A stretch of DNA of 64,000 nucleotides from a virus. Under the pieces are notes generated by a model, which saw nothing but the letters and a program-made list of their open reading frames with translations, was not told the origin of the DNA and did no database searches. Made by a program: the position numbers and the translations under genes. The stretch's first letter is position 1, and each line of letters opens with the position of its first letter. Positions 44,249 to 63,993 of the stretch are shown here, piece after piece. Location: positions 32,001 to 96,000 of the IMG/VR virus record IMGVR_UViG_3300036857_000619; one strand, given 5' to 3'.

Positions 44249-44418
44249 CGGACCGGGATCTGCGAAACCGTCGTCGTCGGTCCCAATCGGCGGTAGGTCG
44301 AGACCGGCTGGCCCGCGGTTGGGCCAGGGCCTGGACCAGGTCCGACGCTCAGCTGCATCGGGCTGGCTGGCACGACCGCGCCGAGCTGTGTGAGCGGCGT
44401 GCCCAGGATGGACGTCAT
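44245..44418 (-). CDS. Small Pro/Gly-rich protein
   Basis: TGATG and ATGA overlaps. Confidence 0.5.
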   Translation of the reverse strand: MTSILGTPLTQLGAVVPASPMQLSVGPGPGPGPTAGQPVSTYRRLGPTTTVSQIPVR

Positions 44419-46892
44419 CAGCCGGTCTGCTCGACGAGGAGGTGGCGCAGCGTAGTGACGCCAGTCATCGTTCCACCACTCGTGTTCCATCGGCCGCGAA
44501 TGGTGTGTGACCCGGCTGCCACGTCGGTCCAGATGGCAAAGATGGTCGCGGCTGTACGGCCGTTGGTGGATGGCATGCGCGTGCTGATCTGACCCTTCTC
44601 GGCTGTTGCGTCCAACTGCAACGCGATATTCAGATCGTTGGACAGCGTTGAGTGGCTGAGCGTGATACTCAGCCACGCGACCAGGGTGCACGTCGCGGCG
44701 GGATTGACCGTGACGGTCATGTCCGGAATGTCGGCATAGGTCGCGGAGGTGGTCGATGGCCCTGATTGCACGCCTTCGGCAGAGCCGACGATGCGTACGC
44801 CAATCGACCCTTGCGGTCCTTGCAGTCCCTGCGGGCCGGCCGGACCCTGAATGCCCTGCGGCCCCTGCGCCCCGGCCGTCCCGGCCGCGCCCTGCGGTCC
44901 CGTGTCGCCTTTGGCACCCGCGATGCCTACATCCCCCTTCGGCCCCTGCGGTCCCTGGAGGCCATCCGCGCCGGCTGGGCCCTGTGCCCCCTGCGGCCCC
45001 TGCGCGCCGCTGGCGCCCACATCCCCCTTTGGGCCCTGCGCACCCGCCGGGCCGACGTCGCCTTGCGGACCTGGCGGACCCGCCGGACCCTGCGCGCCGA
45101 TCGGCCCCGCTGGACCCTGTGGCCCGGCCACACCCGTCGCCCCATCCACGCCCGGCGCACCGACCGGGCCACTCGCTCCGACCCCGCCCACCGGCCCCCG
45201 AATGTTGGTCGAGGTCTGATTCCAGCCCGACGGTCCCGTCTCCGGGTTGTCGAACGACCAGAGCTGACCGTCGTCCTGGACGTACATGTCGCCAGGTCGC
45301 CCCAGCGTGGGCAGTGGCGCGCCACTGCCCGTGTACCACTGCGGAACGGGCGAGCCCTCGGCCAGGATGCTCAGGATGGCGTCCGCGCCGCTGTTGGGCG
45401 AGGCCCCAAGCCCGTCGAGGACGCTGACGGTGTACTCGAAGTAGGTGCCCTGATCCACGGGCGGCTGCATCACTTCGTACTTGACCCAGCGCGTCGAGTC
45501 GGTCTTCTGCTGCAAGCGGATGTTGTCGCCGACCTCGACCGCGCGCAGCTCGGCGCTGAGATCGACGTTGCTCACGTTGTTGTCGTCGACCCAGAGCTTC
45601 GTCGCACTCAACCAGTCGACCGTGTCCGTGCGCACCTGCATGTTGTTGGGCGGAGTGGTGTTCTGGCTGTTCCAGGTCCACGTGCTGGTGTAGATCGCGT
45701 TCGCGTCGCCCGGTGGCCCCTGCTGGCCTTGCGGCCCGGCCGGGCCGGGGTCGCCCTGCGGCCCAGCGACACCGTCCGCTCCCGTCGGCCCCACCGCGCC
45801 TGGTGCACCGGGCGGTCCGATTGGGCCGGGGTCGCCTTGCGGTCCCTGTTGGCCAACTGGCCCCTGGAGCCCCGCGTCGCCCTTCGGTCCAGCCACGCCA
45901 GCAGCACCCTCTGGGCCAGCCGGGCCAACCGCTCCAGGCGGACCCTCTGGGCCGGCCGGACCTTCGGCGCCTTGCGGTCCAGCTGGGCCCTGCGGGCCGG
46001 GCGCGCCTGGCTGACCCGCCGACACGAACAGGTCCCAGTGGTTGGGATCGTCCTCCGGCTCGGCCGGCGCCGGCGCGGCAACGTCCATGATGCACACGTA
46101 GGCGCACCCGTTGTCGCAGGTCGCGATGTCGTTGACCGCATAGCTCGTGTTGGCGTCCCACAGCCCACGCCAGACGCGCTCTGGTCCGACCGGCCCCATC
46201 GGTCCGGGTGGGCCCTGAGCGCCCATGGGCCCTTGCGGGCCCGGCAGCCCCGTCGGTCCGGGCGTCGGCAGCGTGGGCTGGTAATCGGCCGGGATCGCGC
46301 CGACGACCAGGCTGACGTTGTCGAACGAGAAGTCGAACTGGCCCATGCCTGCCAGCACGACCGTGACGCCCACGGGCGGGCCGGCCGGGATCGAGCCCAG
46401 CAGCCGCACGATCTGCCAGTCATCGGTGCCATCGAGCGGCTGGGGCAGCGTGAAGCCGAACGCGCCGATGACGCCGACGACGGCCTGCACCTGCGCGCCG
46501 AGGGGTGCGCTGACCAGGAACGACAGCGACACGTCAGTGCCGTTCAGCGCGCACACCGACGGGTCGATCGTCTGCGCCAGCAGATTGGCCGCGGCGCTGG
46601 TGCCGTGCAACCTGGCAGCCGACGCCGAGCCGGCTGGCGCGGTCGAGGCTTCCTGTTCGACACTGGCGACCTCGCCGTTGGCGTTGGCCATCAGGAACCA
46701 GCCGGTGGCGGTCTCCTGGTCGCTCTGATCGAACGGGCCTGGGCCGAGCGGCCAGTCCTCGAAGCCGCCGTTCTGCAGCAGATTCGGCCGCGGCATGTCG
46801 AAGTTGACCGCCTCGTTGGAGACGCGTTGCACGGCTGCCGGCTGCGTGCCGGGCACCATGGGTGTCGCGCCGAACGCTTCGATGACCGTCAT
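44418..46892 (-). CDS. Multi-domain collagen-like fibre protein
   Basis: Long G-X-Y blocks; [11 protein letters not shown] (CBM-like); [14 protein letters not shown] (chitin-binding-like); WYTGSGAP...G.PGDMY; C-terminal beta domain. Confidence 0.85.
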
Positions 46893-46896
46893 GACG

Positions 46897-47442
46897 TCAT
46901 GGCCCCGTCGTGGCGTAGCTGATGACCACCCGCTCGCTGCCGCTGAAGCCCCCCGCAAAGGTGACGGTCTTGTCCGTGACCGAGTAATGACCCGCCGCGC
47001 GTGACTGGATCACTCCGTTGCGCGAGACCATGAACACCGGGTTGGGCGTCATGCTCAGCGTCACCTGGTTGGCCCCACCAGTGGGCAGGAACTCCTCGAG
47101 CTGGATGCTGAGCGTGGCGACCTGCAGCAACGCGCTCAGCCCATCGTGGGTCAGAACCGCCGCGATGCTGGTGCCCGAGGCCCAGGCGCGCGCGGTGCGA
47201 ACGCCGCGAAACGGCTCGGCCGCCCGCTCGACGCCGAGCGTGGCGGTGCCCTGCCCGGCCGTGACGCGCAGGACTTCCCAGGGCCCGTTCGTCGCGTCGC
47301 TGAACAGCACGGCGCGGTACACGCCGCTGCCAGGCCACGCTGACGCGTCGGCGGCCTGGATCGGAATCACGGTCGTGCTGGCGTCGATCGCGGCGCTGAG
47401 CGTGCTCTGCAGCCCGTTGCCGGCCAGCACTTCCATCGTCAT
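46897..47442 (-). CDS. Putative virion protein
   Basis: TLSAAI.ASTT.I...EV..VTA.....L.V.R domain plus V..NGV.Q...Y.V....VTF C-terminal domain. Confidence 0.65.
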
Positions 47443-60676: not shown

Positions 60677-61258
60677 ATGACCCAGGCGACGAATGACCTG
60701 ACCGAGCTGGTCAGCCAGGCACAGTTGGTTCCGCTTTCGAGCCTGCGCCCAGCCGTTTGGAATCCTAGGGTCATTCGATCCGAGCGCATGAAGAACCTGA
60801 TGCGCTCGATCGAGCGCGACCCGGACATGCTGCGGCTGCGGCCGGTGCTGGCCAGGCTGAACGGCGAGATCTACGCCGGCAACCAGCGTTACCTGGCCTG
60901 CCAGCAGCTCGGCCGCGAGACGATCTGGGCGCATCTCGAGGACGTCTCCGAACAGGTCGCCAAGGAGCGCGCGCTGCGCGACAACAACGAGTGGGGCGCC
61001 TGGGACGACGACAAGCTGCGCGACATGGTCGCCGATCTCAAACAGCTGGGCTCCGACGTCGCGCTGCTCGGTTTTGACGACAAGGAGCTGCAGGCGCTGA
61101 TGGGCGGCCGCGGCATGCCGGCGCCGGGCGACGCGGACACCGACGCGACGGAGCATCTGTTCGGGGTGGTGGTCACCTGCAGCGACGAAGCGCAACAGGT
61201 CGAGCTGCTCGAGCGGCTGACCGAAGAGGGCTACGACGTGCGCGCGCTGGTCTCTTGA
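60677..61258 (+). CDS. ParB/Srx N-terminal-domain protein
   Basis: PL..L.P..WNPR.I......L..SI......P.L....G.I.AGNQRY.A...LG...A...AL.DN...G.WD...L. Confidence 0.85.
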   Translation: MTQATNDLTELVSQAQLVPLSSLRPAVWNPRVIRSERMKNLMRSIERDPDMLRLRPVLARLNGEIYAGNQRYLACQQLGRETIWAHLEDVSEQVAKERALRDNNEWGAWDDDKLRDMVADLKQLGSDVALLGFDDKELQALMGGRGMPAPGDADTDATEHLFGVVVTCSDEAQQVELLERLTEEGYDVRALVS

Positions 61259-61274
61259 TGACGCGAGTATTGGG

Positions 61275-61472
61275 GTGTGTGATTTCTGCGGCGACCCAGG
61301 CGACCACAACAAGCCGTACGAGGTTGGCCGCGAGGACCTGGTGGTGCTGCGACTGGTGCCCGCCGAGTTGCACGCGTTGACGCGGCTGCGCACGCACGTG
61401 CGCGACGTGCAGCTGCGCGGCTACGACCAGGGCCCCGCCGCGGGCGACGTCCAGGCGGATGCGGAGTCATGA
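61275..61472 (+). CDS. Small CDFC protein
   Basis: GTG start; ATGA overlap with next gene. Confidence 0.5.
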   Translation: MCDFCGDPGDHNKPYEVGREDLVVLRLVPAELHALTRLRTHVRDVQLRGYDQGPAAGDVQADAES

Positions 61473-62719
61473 CCACGACAGCTGGGCCTCTGGTGGCGCA
61501 CGTCAGGAACGAGGTGGCCGTCAAAAAGTCCGTACGCACGATGCAGGTTTCGTCAATGTTCGACATCCCGCCGCACGAGCGCAGCACGAGCGAGTGGACC
61601 GTGTCTCTGCCCCTGCACGAGCGGGACTGGGGCGTGGGCCTGATCGTCGGGCCATCAGGGGCAGGCAAGACGAGCGTGGCCCGCGCCCTCTTCCCCGAGC
61701 AACTCGTCGCCGAGTTCGCGTGGCCCGCGGAGCGCAGCATCCTGGACGCGTTCCCGGAGGGCATGTCGATCAAGGACATCACCGGCTCGCTGACCGCCGT
61801 CGGCTTCGGCTCGCCGCCGGCCTGGTTCCGTCCGTACGCCAGCCTGAGCACCGGCGAGCAGTTCCGCGTGACGATCGCCCGTGCGCTGGCCGAAAGCCCG
61901 GACCGGGTGGTCATCGACGAGTTCACCAGCACCGTCGATCGGCAGGTGGCGCAGGTCGCCTCACACGCGATCCAGAAGGCGGTCCGCCGCGCGAAGCGGC
62001 AGCTGGTAGCGGTGACGTGCCACTACGACGTCGTCGACTGGCTGCAGCCCGACTGGATCTACCAGCCGCACACGGGCGAGTTTGCCTGGAGGTTTCTTCA
62101 ACGACACCCGCCCCTGGAGCTCCGTCTCCATTCGGTCCATCACTCCGTCTGGCCGGTGTTTGCACGTCATCACTATCTGAGTTCAGAACTGAACAAGTCC
62201 GCGGTGTGCTTCGGCGGCTGGATCGGCGACGAGCTGGTGGGTTTCACGTCGTACCTGCATCTGCCGCACTACCGCGTCAAGAACGTGAAGCTCGGCCACC
62301 GGCTGGTGGTGCTGCCCGACTACCAGGGGCTGGGCATCGGCGGGCGCATGGACGACTGGCTCGGCCAGAAGCTGTACGAGGAGGGGTACCGCTACCACAA
62401 CGTGGTCTCGCACCCGGCGATGATCGCGTACTACTCGGCCTCGCCCCGCTGGCGGCTGTTTCGAGGGGCCGGAGCCAAGTCGTACCCGCTGCACAGCTAC
62501 GGCTCACTCGAAAAGAACCCGACGCTGGTGCGGCGCCACGCGCACCCGCGCAACCTGCAAACCATGGCCTTCGAGTACGTGCCGCCCATTCAAGAGGGGG
62601 GGGTAGCTGTATGCCGTTCGGCGCCGACTGCGAATTTGCGGACTTCGCCGCCTGTGTCAGGCACTTCTCGAGCGGCAAGAACAAGAAGTCCAACCCGCGC
62701 GCGTACTGCGCCCAGTTAA
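61469..62719 (+). CDS. ABC-type ATPase fused to GNAT (Mom-like) acyltransferase
   Basis: Walker A GPSGAGKT, signature LSTGEQ, Walker B VIDEF, H-loop TCHYD; F.RHHYL and motif A RLVVLPDYQGLGIG; true 3' end may be about 62606 (see G8 tract). Confidence 0.9.
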   Translation: MTTTAGPLVAHVRNEVAVKKSVRTMQVSSMFDIPPHERSTSEWTVSLPLHERDWGVGLIVGPSGAGKTSVARALFPEQLVAEFAWPAERSILDAFPEGMSIKDITGSLTAVGFGSPPAWFRPYASLSTGEQFRVTIARALAESPDRVVIDEFTSTVDRQVAQVASHAIQKAVRRAKRQLVAVTCHYDVVDWLQPDWIYQPHTGEFAWRFLQRHPPLELRLHSVHHSVWPVFARHHYLSSELNKSAVCFGGWIGDELVGFTSYLHLPHYRVKNVKLGHRLVVLPDYQGLGIGGRMDDWLGQKLYEEGYRYHNVVSHPAMIAYYSASPRWRLFRGAGAKSYPLHSYGSLEKNPTLVRRHAHPRNLQTMAFEYVPPIQEGGVAVCRSAPTANLRTSPPVSGTSRAARTRSPTRARTAPS

Positions 62720-62835
62720 TGAAGGCGACCGAGGAGCACTGCGCGAAGCAGCGCGCGGCCCAGCACGTGCCCGCCGAGCCGCCGCCGGCCGAAGCGCCCG
62801 CGGAGTGGCCCATGCCACCGCGCGTGGGCCCATGA
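62611..62835 (+). CDS. Small Cys protein (MPF...DFAACV...NPRAYC)
   Basis: G-rich SD; ATGA overlap with panD. Confidence 0.6.
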   Translation: MPFGADCEFADFAACVRHFSSGKNKKSNPRAYCAQLMKATEEHCAKQRAAQHVPAEPPPAEAPAEWPMPPRVGP

Positions 62836-63194
62836 AGAACTGGGTTGCCGCCAAGATCCACGGCATCGTGGTGACCGACCGGCACTTCAACTACCACGGC
62901 TCGGTCACCATCGCCGAACGACTGCTGGAAGCCGCGGGCATCGAGCCGTACGAGCAGGTCCACGTGGTGAATCTCGAGAGCGGCGCGCGCTGGGTGACGT
63001 ACGCGCTGCCAGGCCCGGAGTCCGTGTTCGAAACCAACGGCGGCGGGGCGCACCTGGCCAAGCCTGGCGATCGGTGCGTGGTCATGACGTACGCCATGAC
63101 CGAGCGCTTCGAGGGCGCGCGGGTACTGATGATGCGACTCGAGGGCGAGGCGCTGCTGCCGAACGTCGACTTCGATCTGCTGCGCTATCCGTGA
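62832..63194 (+). CDS. panD: Aspartate 1-decarboxylase (pyruvoyl-dependent proenzyme)
   Basis: K8-I-H10, self-cleavage YHG|S (G23-S24), LL.AAGI..YEQV...N...G.R..TY57, NGG.A.L...GD. Confidence 0.92.
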   Translation: MKNWVAAKIHGIVVTDRHFNYHGSVTIAERLLEAAGIEPYEQVHVVNLESGARWVTYALPGPESVFETNGGGAHLAKPGDRCVVMTYAMTERFEGARVLMMRLEGEALLPNVDFDLLRYP

Positions 63195-63280
63195 GCGACG
63201 AGCAGCTGCGCCTGGTGATGTTCGCCGCACTGGTTGTCACGTTCCTGGTCATCCTGGTCATGCGCGGGAGCAACTGGTGA
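63191..63280 (+). CDS. 29-aa single-TM peptide
   Basis: GTGA overlaps at both ends; LVMFAALVVTFLVILVM. Confidence 0.5.
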   Translation: MSDEQLRLVMFAALVVTFLVILVMRGSNW

Positions 63281-63285
63281 GGGCA

Positions 63286-63993
63286 ATGCGCGTTCTGGAA
63301 CTAGGGAACTATGTTTCTGTCGCCTACGCGGGCATGCTGCTCGCCGAGCAGGGGTTCGAGGTGACCAAGTGGGTGGCGCCCGAGCCGGCGCGCGATCCGA
63401 TCCTCGGTCTGGACCACGGCGACGAGCTGTGGGCGTGGATCAACGCGGGCAAAACGCTGGTCGCGCGCCGGGCCCACGAGCTCGCGCAGCTGCCGCTGGG
63501 CGACGTCGGGATCGTGCTGGATAACGTTCGACCGGCCACGCTGGCCAGCTGGGGCATCGAGCCGGCCACGCTGGCGCAACGCTGGGCGGTGGTGTGGGTC
63601 AGCCTGCGCAGCGAGGTCGGCGAGCGCAGCTTCGACGTCGTCGCCCAGGCGCGCAGCTGGATGGAGTACGGACCCTGGCTGCCGATCTACCTGGGCGACA
63701 CCACCGCCGGGCTGATGATGGCCTTCAAGGCGCTGGCCAAACTCGCCCGCCACGAGCCCGGCCACTACGTCCTCGGCCAGGCCAGCTGCTTACAGAAACT
63801 TGTCGAGGGCGAGCTGGTGGTCGATGCGCCGCTGCGCGAGCAGAACACGCGCTGGGACCTCGACGAATACTGGGCCGGGCCCGACGGCGCCCACGTCTGC
63901 TACCGCGGCGAGCTGCTGCGCGAGCCGATTCGCGATCGCGCCTGGAAGCTCGAGCACCTGTACCACGACGGGGCCGGACGGATCCGCCTCTAA
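63286..63993 (+). CDS. Shortened class III (CaiB/BaiF) CoA-transferase
   Basis: RVLEL...AYAG.LLAE.G.EV.K...N.GK...DN.RP..L...G...SFD..AQA...LGD.TAG (catalytic Asp motif). Confidence 0.8.
   Translation: MRVLELGNYVSVAYAGMLLAEQGFEVTKWVAPEPARDPILGLDHGDELWAWINAGKTLVARRAHELAQLPLGDVGIVLDNVRPATLASWGIEPATLAQRWAVVWVSLRSEVGERSFDVVAQARSWMEYGPWLPIYLGDTTAGLMMAFKALAKLARHEPGHYVLGQASCLQKLVEGELVVDAPLREQNTRWDLDEYWAGPDGAHVCYRGELLREPIRDRAWKLEHLYHDGAGRIRL

Follow-up and report, generated by a model that had tools for sequence, protein, structure and literature searches.

A complete phage genome of 125 kb carries, just upstream of its packaging genes, a cassette made up of a ParB-like (ParB-N) protein, a fusion of an ABC-ATPase with a GNAT acyltransferase, the decarboxylase PanD and a short class III CoA-transferase-like protein (positions 60677-63993 of the window, i.e. 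of the 64,000-nucleotide stretch that was analysed; Table 1). The catalytic residues of all four are intact. Our best explanation, which we put forward tentatively and from sequence-based evidence, is that PanD and the CoA-transferase would provide beta-alanyl-CoA, from which the ABC-GNAT protein would acylate a base of the phage DNA. It is probable that the two enzymes feed the GNAT and, provided that they do so, DNA is a likely acceptor. The novelty of the system lies in the PanD/CoA-transferase arm and not in the ParB + ABC-GNAT core. The core is widespread, with 80 cultured phage records, and in the literature we found neither a paper describing the arm nor a measured activity, product or target for any ABC-GNAT module.

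Table 1. Genes and small open reading frames of the cassette (window positions).
Feature	Position	Strand	Evidence and remarks
ParB-like protein, 193 aa	60677..61258	+	PF02195 1.1e-5; phrog_620 4.9e-23
Small ORF, 65 aa	61275..61472	+	GC3 0.89; stop overlaps ABC-GNAT start (ATGA)
ABC-ATPase::GNAT fusion	61469..62719	+	phrog_11143 9.9e-99; PF00005; PF00583
Unannotated ORF in the ABC-GNAT/PanD gap, 74 aa	62611..62835	+	GC3 0.89; ATGA overlap with PanD ATG
PanD, pyruvoyl-dependent aspartate 1-decarboxylase, 120 aa from ATG	62832..63194	+	PF02261 2.6e-28
Hydrophobic mini-ORF, 20 aa	63218..63280	+	Direct sequence reading; stop overlaps GTG 63277
Short class III CoA-transferase-like protein, 238 aa from GTG	63277..63993	+	PF02515 1.1e-10

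An earlier sequence-only reading had named the four main genes and considered their catalytic motifs intact, which is borne out by profile matches and invariant residues. The ParB-like protein consists of an N-terminal ParB nucleotide-binding domain, which scores marginally below the Pfam cut-off (PF02195, 25.9 bits; cut-off 26.3), and a short conserved C-terminal domain. Its GxxRxxA motif reads GNQRYLA, and no HTH domain was detected in the protein. In most related loci the ParB gene lies directly 5' of ABC-GNAT, for which it is a nearly universal partner. The locus belongs to the ParB + ABC-GNAT phage module, as a ParB-N gene precedes ABC-GNAT and terminase genes adjoin; the module also stands beside lysis genes. 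In loci without the PanD/CoA-transferase arm, ABC-GNAT lies right next to the small-terminase-like and TerL genes.

Within the fusion protein, the ATPase spans residues ~1-210 and the GNAT residues ~215-335, and PF00005 and PF00583 both score above their cut-offs (PF00583, 28.9 bits against 20.7). Across 37 homologues the ATPase residues of Walker A (G61-K67), the signature (L126, S127, G129), Walker B (D150/E151) and the H-loop (H185) are invariant, as are H235 and Y236 of the GNAT, whose motif A, QGLGIG, has an invariant G287 together with a nearly invariant Q286 and G289. An AF2 model (pLDDT 83) leaves the tail (residues 377-416) disordered. The last 40 residues, encoded 3' of a G8 run (62598-62605), also have a non-coding-like composition (GC3 0.45); the conserved part ends near 62600, and the tail beyond the G8 run probably does not belong to the true coding sequence. 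Using phmmer with the GNAT region against PDB sequences (E up to 10), only generic GNATs were listed. Since the domain has no detectable sequence likeness to Mom, the label “Mom-like” used in the sequence-only reading can only be kept as an analogy.

The gene overlaps described earlier as a chain from 61275 to 63280 are present, but they run through two small ORFs that had gone unnamed (62611-62835 and 63218-63280). The first of these has a Shine-Dalgarno site upstream (GAGGGGGGGG), shows no Pfam match and was not found in related loci. The second, which is not conserved elsewhere, is of uncertain status; it may act as a coupling ORF or encode a small membrane peptide. The 65-aa ORF upstream of ABC-GNAT gave no family match and no tblastn match in related loci and is thus not conserved.

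PanD matches PF02261 with 98.7 bits (cut-off 25) and aligns to PanD of M. tuberculosis (2c45, 2.3e-15). With the stricter equivalog model TIGR00223 it reaches 65.4 bits and remains below the cut-off of 106, for which reason we regard the phage proteins as a divergent, phage-specific clade. K8, H10, Y21, the self-cleavage site G23-S24, R53, T56, Y57 and N69, numbered from ATG 62832, do not vary among 23 phage PanDs; the catalytic or substrate residues of E. coli PanD used for comparison are K9, H11, Y22, R54, T57, Y58 and N72. Most likely, translation starts at this ATG, giving the 120-aa product on record, and not at GTG 62805.

For the short CoA-transferase, ATG 63286 (235 aa) is probably the start rather than GTG 63277 (238 aa). 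PF02515 scores 41.6 bits (cut-off 23.3) and covers profile positions 4-186 of 366. The protein is not cut short by the end of the window, as ~235 aa is the conserved length of its family, which numbers more than 280 proteins and is sharply set apart from canonical class III members. The catalytic Asp141 in LGDTTAG, presumably the counterpart of Asp169 in Frc/CaiB, is invariant in sets of 45 and 23 sequences, as is D120. A phmmer search against the PDB gave no match. With the AF2 model (pLDDT 93), the top matches of Foldseek and VIA are all family III enzymes, and VIA superposes 234 of the 238 residues on chain span 3-351 of 4ed9 (Z 19.4, rmsd 3.3). Because 238 residues align over a 349-residue span, ~115 residues corresponding to the small domain are absent; the protein is a large domain only, with Asp141 kept, instead of the two-domain subunit of an interlocked dimer. 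In solved family III enzymes the active site is closed by this small domain, and the short protein might bind CoA or act as a thioesterase instead of being a transferase. A homodimer is predicted with an ipSAE of 0.84 (best control 0.00). Of the solved pairs, 20 of 30 attain that mark, against 1 of 23 single chains; contacts agree by at least 96% between runs with a partner pLDDT of at least 87. This predicted dimer may reflect the model's memory of solved family III dimers.

The conserved linkage of panD and the CoA-transferase to ABC-GNAT, on which the sequence-only reading had staked its proposal, is strong. ABC-GNAT lies directly upstream of the short CoA-transferase in 37 of 40 viral contigs, the other three being cut at the contig end, and wherever upstream sequence exists the viral CoA-transferase was never seen apart from ABC-GNAT. 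PanD is placed between the two genes in ~30 of the 40 viral loci and was never found without the CoA-transferase among the viral loci surveyed, while five lineages keep the CoA-transferase and lack PanD. The arm is optional and has been lost several times. (Pro)phages from at least four bacterial phyla carry the cassette, with genome records from Planctomycetota, Alphaproteobacteria, Acidobacteriota and Actinomycetota. Rhodococcus phage Jace (gp85-88) is the only cultured phage found with the PanD/CoA-transferase arm, and it makes the cassette accessible to a bench test. Across 23 cassettes, ABC-GNAT and the CoA-transferase co-diverge with a Mantel r of 0.72, and the pairs with PanD reach 0.55 and 0.51 (p 0.0005).

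The GNAT itself also follows the arm. Whether the CoA-transferase is present is mirrored at residues G276, Y309, N311 and Y322; the pair N311/Y322 is found in 29 of 32 linked GNATs, whereas none of the 27 unlinked ones, a set that includes nested lineages that lost the arm, has both. The two residues map to strand beta5 and helix alpha4 of the model, where GNATs hold their acyl donors. This co-variation amounts to only 4-5 phylogenetically independent contrasts, with a sign test that is not significant.

A separate line comes from bacteria. In nine actinobacterial genomes the short CoA-transferase lies between a glutamate-decarboxylase-like gene (TIGR01788, 361 bits) and an aminobutyraldehyde dehydrogenase gene (NF010000, 622 bits, above cut-off). 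Judged from their families, both neighbours make omega-amino acids, which supports an omega-amino acid as substrate of the CoA-transferase. The CoA-transferases of the operon type fall into a single group on the tree, so the bacterial context counts as one evolutionary event, and it would suit GABA just as well as beta-alanine.

Linkage, co-divergence, GNAT co-variation and bacterial context thus speak for the single route from aspartate via beta-alanyl-CoA to the GNAT that the sequence-only reading had proposed; each enzymatic step, as well as the CoA donor and the acceptor, is what we infer. PanD would convert free L-aspartate to beta-alanine, and the homodimeric minimal class III CoA-transferase would then use Asp141 and a host acyl-CoA to form beta-alanyl-CoA. 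The latter is a workable metabolite that is made by a CoA-transferase (PMC10266731). Together with its ParB-like partner, the ABC-ATPase::GNAT would spend ATP on target engagement, and the GNAT would move the beta-alanyl group from CoA to an amine, most likely the exocyclic amine of a phage DNA base before packaging. The product would be an amino-acyl mark of cationic character (+71.04 Da), or an isomer formed from it by rearrangement, shielding the DNA against host nucleases. To our knowledge, no tRNA is charged with beta-alanine, and this would account for a route through CoA; a CoA donor is favoured over an aminoacyl-tRNA because the CoA-transferase is linked to the GNAT. Precedents for the DNA end of the pathway are the GNAT enzyme Mom, which aminoacylates N6-adenine in dsDNA (PMC13219725), phage ParB-like proteins that activate the action of a DNA-modifying dioxygenase on dsDNA (PMC13229309) and, according to a secondhand quotation, TmcA, in which an ATPase is coupled to GNAT acetylation of N4-cytosine. 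Against the proposal, instability has been reported for N-acyl groups at N6 of adenine (PMC13219725). The proposed DNA acceptor is also weakened by the ABC domain, whose PDB neighbours are nucleotide-binding domains of the transporter type, unlike DNA-clamping ABC proteins, and by the lack of any other detectable DNA-modification gene in the complete genome.

In a rather unlikely rival, the donor arm is the same and the acceptor is either a protein (terminase, portal, capsid or a host protein bound to DNA) or a small molecule, for instance a polyamine, with ParB and the ATPase serving recruitment or regulation. Proteins or small molecules are the acceptors of most characterised GNATs, the ABC domain resembles that of transporters, no reader or eraser is detectable in the genome except for a marginal ASCH match, and the module adjoins packaging and lysis genes. 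However, the nearly universal partner is of a ParB-like kind that acts with DNA-modifying enzymes, and comparison of the loci shows no protein that is conserved in linkage with the cassette and could be its substrate. The constant position of the module directly upstream of terS/terL would also suit a core that is non-catalytic or packaging-related and marks or organises DNA for the terminase, with a GNAT fold that only binds CoA and an arm that tunes a CoA-based signal; the invariant motif-A residues, H235/Y236 and a fully competent ATPase site argue for catalysis and make this very unlikely.

The arm might instead be a separate metabolic moron for beta-alanine, GABA or CoA metabolism at a permissive ABC-GNAT/terminase insertion site, with a GNAT that uses acetyl-CoA. 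In line with this, ABC-GNAT is absent from three genomes with the bacterial operon, where the CoA-transferase works without it, the arm is optional, other non-conserved small ORFs are inserted at the same spot in the window, and PanD genes also occur in unrelated phages without the module. We consider it improbable, as the viral CoA-transferase stays with ABC-GNAT and co-diverges with it, residues of the GNAT donor site change on arm loss, and a role in boosting CoA has no need of a CoA-transferase. Least probable of all appears a reversed order, in which an aspartyl group is activated, attached to the target and then decarboxylated in place by PanD, as the sequence-only reading had suggested for its alternative. 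Decarboxylation of amino-acid-base conjugates on DNA does occur in phage thymidine hypermodification (PMC8989533), but the decarboxylases described there are PLP enzymes; the sequence-only reading had spoken of pyruvoyl decarboxylases, and the word “pyruvoyl” is absent from that paper. Moreover, the residues of PanD that bind free aspartate are all invariant, the bacterial CoA-transferase partners make free omega-amino acids, and there are the five lineages with a CoA-transferase and no PanD. These fit a PanD that boosts substrate supply, because hosts make their own beta-alanine.

Among known systems, the closest is the ParB + ABC-ATPase::GNAT module (phrog_11143), which has the same fused enzyme, ParB partner and position upstream of the terminase genes; the present locus and ~40 further loci add PanD, the minimal CoA-transferase and the matching GNAT-site signature. 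Mom of phage Mu is likewise a phage GNAT-fold enzyme, which puts a glycyl group on an exocyclic base amine of dsDNA and acts after replication in restriction evasion (Silva et al., Nat Commun 2026, PMC13219725). Its donor is not acetyl-CoA, as the sequence-only reading had it; glycine is moved from Gly-tRNA to adenine N6 (PMC13219725). In contrast to this single protein with its Gly-tRNA donor, the cassette enzyme combines its GNAT with an ATPase domain and a ParB partner, and its presumed donor is the CoA thioester of a non-proteinogenic amino acid. The GNAT of the tRNA or rRNA cytidine N4-acetyltransferases TmcA/NAT10 acylates a poorly nucleophilic aromatic nucleobase amine from acyl-CoA. 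These enzymes likewise join an ATPase domain to a GNAT; the ATPase of TmcA, which uses an RNA substrate and acetyl-CoA, is helicase-type, whereas that of the cassette is ABC-type. ParB-dependent phage thymine dioxygenases rely on a ParB-like protein with nucleotide-binding and C-terminal domains and without an evident DNA-binding domain, which is required for the DNA-modifying enzyme on dsDNA (O'Toole et al., PNAS 2026, PMC13229309), and DpdB is described, in a secondhand quotation, as the ParB-like ATPase of the 7-deazaguanine system. In the O'Toole and DpdA-DpdB systems the ParB partner is a dioxygenase or a transglycosylase and not an acyltransferase. The class III CoA-transferases Frc, YfdW, CaiB, YfdE, Rv3272 and SUGCT have the same fold as the short protein (Z 17-19 over all 238 residues), the LGD-type catalytic Asp and a dimer via the same central helix, which in the short protein is predicted; they are 350-430 aa long, whereas the short protein has ~235 aa, a loop of ~20 residues standing in for the small domain. 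Compared by reaction, the beta-alanine CoA-transferase of Anaerotignum (Clostridium) propionicum, which serves catabolism in a fermenting organism, catalyses the very step proposed for the phage protein, from beta-alanine and acyl-CoA to beta-alanyl-CoA (PMC10266731).

The phage cassette of ParB-N, ABC-ATPase::GNAT (ABC-GNAT), PanD and a short class III CoA-transferase is most plausibly a novel version of an already known, predicted system. Its existence is confirmed and its conservation strong, and all the catalytic motifs named in the sequence-only reading are present and invariant across relatives. Its list of genes is correct for those it named and overlooked a 74-aa ORF, which overlaps the ABC-GNAT tail, has a GC3 of 0.89, possesses its own Shine-Dalgarno site and shares an ATGA overlap with PanD.

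Coordinates of the cassette (window positions) and of the related bacterial operon
Feature	Position	Strand	Remark
ParB-N	60677-61258	+	
65-aa ORF		+	between ParB-N and ABC-ATPase::GNAT
ABC-ATPase::GNAT	61469-62719	+	
74-aa ORF	62611-62835	+	between ABC-GNAT and PanD
PanD	62832-63194	+	
20-aa hydrophobic mini-ORF		+	between PanD and the CoA-transferase gene
Short class III CoA-transferase-like gene	63277/63286-63993	+	
Convergent PAS-like gene, two HTH genes, TerL			past the window end
Actinobacterial operon	L061 5802-9154		likewise in loci L062, L063, L105, L107, L109-L111, L113, L115, L117

The cassette is located on the plus strand, with the lysis genes on one side and the packaging genes on the other. 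The virus record is 124,823 bp long, bears direct terminal repeats, is rated as 100% complete and has a G+C content of 68%. This genome also encodes a capsid protein (about 25% identical to those of cultured phages), a GH19 lysin, an integrase, a collagen-repeat protein and an intein-bearing large terminase. The terminase gene (L001 8402-10867; genome 98402-100867, just past the window) is an 821-aa ORF with Hint and intein-splicing domains in its middle. The collagen-repeat protein (window 44418-46958, minus strand) is a structural protein of 846 aa in which long collagen triple-helix repeats (PF01391, 1.5e-37) are accompanied by a weak match to a carbohydrate-binding module; it is probably a tail fibre. 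Within the cassette, the conserved part of ABC-GNAT ends at a run of eight G residues (62598-62605, at the start of the window stretch 62598-62835), and the last 40 codons 3' of this run show a non-coding-like GC3 of 0.45 and are disordered in the fold model. With one G less, ABC-GNAT would stop at a TAG right there, and the homopolymer may reflect a sequencing error or act as a slippery site. A scan for promoters and terminators yielded nothing above chance.

As its own test, the sequence-only reading had named a conserved linkage of PanD and the CoA-transferase to ABC-GNAT, and this linkage is clearly visible: in 37 of the 40 viral loci found from the CoA-transferase alignment, ABC-GNAT is positioned directly upstream, and the other three loci are cut at the contig end. 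PanD lies between both genes in about 30 of these loci. Five lineages carry the CoA-transferase without PanD, and PanD without the CoA-transferase was not found among the 40 loci. This set came from an alignment-based scan of viral contigs; single-sequence pattern scans of such contigs in which either PanD or the CoA-transferase served as the sole query gave no matches. Starting from ABC-GNAT, we found 56 viral loci with ParB upstream in most of them and PanD plus CoA-transferase directly downstream in a subset. The G+C content of the viral loci ranges from 45 to 70%, and about 11 loci with a phage-type cassette occur among one genome per prokaryote species, distributed over Planctomycetota, Alphaproteobacteria, Acidobacteriota and Actinomycetota. 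Since ABC-GNAT in loci lacking PanD and the CoA-transferase is directly followed by a small-terminase-like HTH gene and TerL, PanD and the CoA-transferase are an optional arm inserted into an otherwise constant module. The distribution of the arm on a tree of 60 ABC-GNATs shows strong clustering (5 changes vs about 20 expected), with presence on deep branches and nested losses. Besides, the pairwise distances are correlated between ABC-GNAT and the CoA-transferase (Mantel r = 0.72), ABC-GNAT and PanD (r = 0.55) and PanD and the CoA-transferase (r = 0.51; p 0.0005 each), and the mean divergence of the three genes is similar (0.43-0.50), which fits a long co-inheritance of the cassette as a unit. 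A group of related viral contigs (L046-L058, L060) encodes the ABC ATPase alone, with about 227 aa and without a fused GNAT.

The CoA-transferase of the cassette defines a new, minimal type of class III enzyme. Its family comprises more than 280 proteins in about 37 clusters at 50% identity, every one of 225-265 aa and sharply separated from the canonical family III enzymes. A phmmer search found no solved relative, and the profile matched a formyl-CoA transferase and a racemase weakly. The AF2 model (pLDDT 93) has structural matches to family III enzymes only, and the VIA-align comparison with 4ed9 (Z 19.4, rmsd 3.3) aligns 234 of 238 residues across residues 3-351 of 4ed9, implying an intact large domain and the lack of the small domain. 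Asp120 and the Asp141 of the LGD motif, which we take to be the equivalent of Frc Asp169, are invariant. A homodimer is predicted with an ipSAE of 0.84 (best control 0.00), a contact agreement of at least 96% between runs and a partner pLDDT of at least 87; of the solved pairs, 20 of 30 attain this ipSAE mark, as does 1 of 23 single chains, and the prediction may owe its pass to solved family III dimers already seen by the model. A Rosetta-stone search for fused forms revealed no relatives of greater length. In a single contig (L128 843-2057), a 404-aa ORF (P0201) has the ABC domain of an ABC-GNAT homologue linked in frame to a short CoA-transferase, with neither the GNAT domain nor PanD present. 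We rejected it as a functional fusion because the joint, after the ABC H-loop and within the first CoA-transferase strand, cuts both domains in conserved elements and the contig name gives a coverage of 4.6x; it is probably a deletion or a misassembly.

A clue to the substrate of this enzyme comes from bacteria, in which the minimal class III form has a second context beside GABA-forming enzymes. Lentzea, Natronoglycomyces, Streptomyces and six more actinobacterial records harbour a short CoA-transferase (51-58% identical) in a tight three-gene operon in the order PLP decarboxylase, short CoA-transferase and aldehyde dehydrogenase. The decarboxylase is glutamate-decarboxylase-like (TIGR01788, 361 bits, just below the cut-off of 380) and the dehydrogenase passes the model for aminobutyraldehyde dehydrogenase (NF010000, 622 bits vs a cut-off of 615). 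An omega-amino acid is the most plausible substrate because both flanking enzymes make omega-amino acids and because the pairing of a decarboxylase with a CoA-transferase is sensible only if the product retains a carboxylate. Judged from these gene neighbourhoods, it would be GABA in bacteria and beta-alanine where PanD replaces the PLP enzyme, and the operon points to an undescribed omega-aminoacyl-CoA pathway, perhaps via 4-aminobutyryl-CoA. The operon-type CoA-transferases form a single group on the tree, so that the operon context reflects one evolutionary event. In three operon-bearing genomes ABC-GNAT is absent, and no further copy of the short CoA-transferase was found in 400 sampled genomes of the same phylum around Lentzea.

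The GNAT domain itself also tracks the arm. G276, Y309, N311 and Y322 are invariant in ABC-GNATs with a CoA-transferase at their locus, including deep-branching and PanD-less ones, whereas the four positions are replaced, mostly by hydrophobic residues, in unlinked GNATs, also in those nested among linked ones (L007, L010, L021, L022). The pair N311 plus Y322 is present in 29 of 32 linked proteins and in none of the 27 unlinked ones; a sign test of these residues against the presence of the CoA-transferase, with 4-5 independent contrasts, was not significant. In the model, the four residues are located in strands beta4 and beta5 and helix alpha4, the region that forms the acyl-group site of GNATs. 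A pocket that becomes wider and polar instead of hydrophobic would fit a switch from an acetyl to an amino-acyl donor. A fold search with the whole ABC-GNAT matched ABC transporter domains throughout, with none of the matches bearing on the GNAT domain, and no likeness of the GNAT to Mom was found at the sequence level.

In the most probable pathway, PanD would convert free aspartate to beta-alanine, which the CoA-transferase would load onto CoA taken from a host acyl-CoA; the PanD-less lineages could draw on beta-alanine of the host. Together with the ParB-like protein as partner, the ATP-driven GNAT would then transfer the beta-alanyl group to the target just before packaging. As beta-alanine is not known to have a tRNA, a CoA thioester would be its natural activated form. 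As acceptor we favour DNA. Against this speak the resemblance of the ABC domain to a transporter-type domain in the fold search and the reported instability of N6-acyl adenine (PMC13219725). Elsewhere in the genome, 22 kb away from the cassette, a 163-aa ORF (L104 1420-1911; genome 117072-117563) shows a marginal ASCH match of 21.3 bits (cut-off 21.2) that covers only the first 39 profile positions, and N6/N4 methylase, C5 methylase, hydroxymethylase and thymidylate-synthase-like families were not found in the phage genome. The full reading, that multi-phylum phages make beta-alanyl-CoA by a CoA-transferase without small domain and that a ParB-activated, ATP-driven GNAT amino-acylates the bases of their own DNA, is possible rather than probable. 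With DNA as acceptor, an N-(2-carbamoylethyl) derivative might arise by rearrangement of the adduct on the base, by analogy to the glycyl-adenine of Mom.

The core of ParB and ABC-GNAT is among the most widespread phage gene sets of predicted function: we found it in 80 cultured phage records from many hosts, ranging from Streptococcus to SSU5-type phage-plasmids, where most annotations read ABC transporter or hypothetical protein. A survey of 50,697 phage records shows the CoA-transferase arm in Rhodococcus phage Jace only (two records, one genome), in which gp85-88 carry the annotations ParB-like, ATP binding protein, aspartate decarboxylase and hypothetical protein. The paper describing Jace does not mention these genes, and text searches revealed no description of the combination of ParB, ABC-GNAT, PanD and CoA-transferase. 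As a cultured, temperate phage, Jace offers a model for the cassette, which points to a specific and unusual candidate donor, beta-alanyl-CoA. For a beta-alanyl donor, a mass shift of +71.04 Da (C3H5NO) is expected, and a label could be introduced via aspartate or beta-alanine.

In comparison to known systems, the individual steps have counterparts. Beta-alanyl-CoA is described as a CoA-transferase product that is stable enough for purification (PMC10266731). Phage ParB-like proteins that lack a DNA-binding domain serve as activators of a thymine dioxygenase, and do so specifically on dsDNA (PMC13229309), and TmcA, as quoted in PMC13219725, couples the use of ATP to the GNAT acetylation of cytosine N4. 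Mom, a GNAT of phage Mu, attaches glycine to the N6 position of adenine in dsDNA, and the adduct then rearranges on the base; the donor is Gly-tRNA (PMC13219725) and not acetyl-CoA, as the sequence-only reading had assumed. Its statement on pyruvoyl decarboxylases in thymidine hypermodification likewise needs correction, since the decarboxylases shown to act there are PLP enzymes. If the target is DNA, the cassette would stand for a new class of cationic DNA hypermodification, and its reaction would be the CoA-based counterpart of the tRNA-based Mom reaction. In the full reading given above, this hypermodification would be the first that is both CoA-dependent and amino-acyl, and the ABC-GNAT core would serve as a common platform, with interchangeable donor-supply arms determining the mark.
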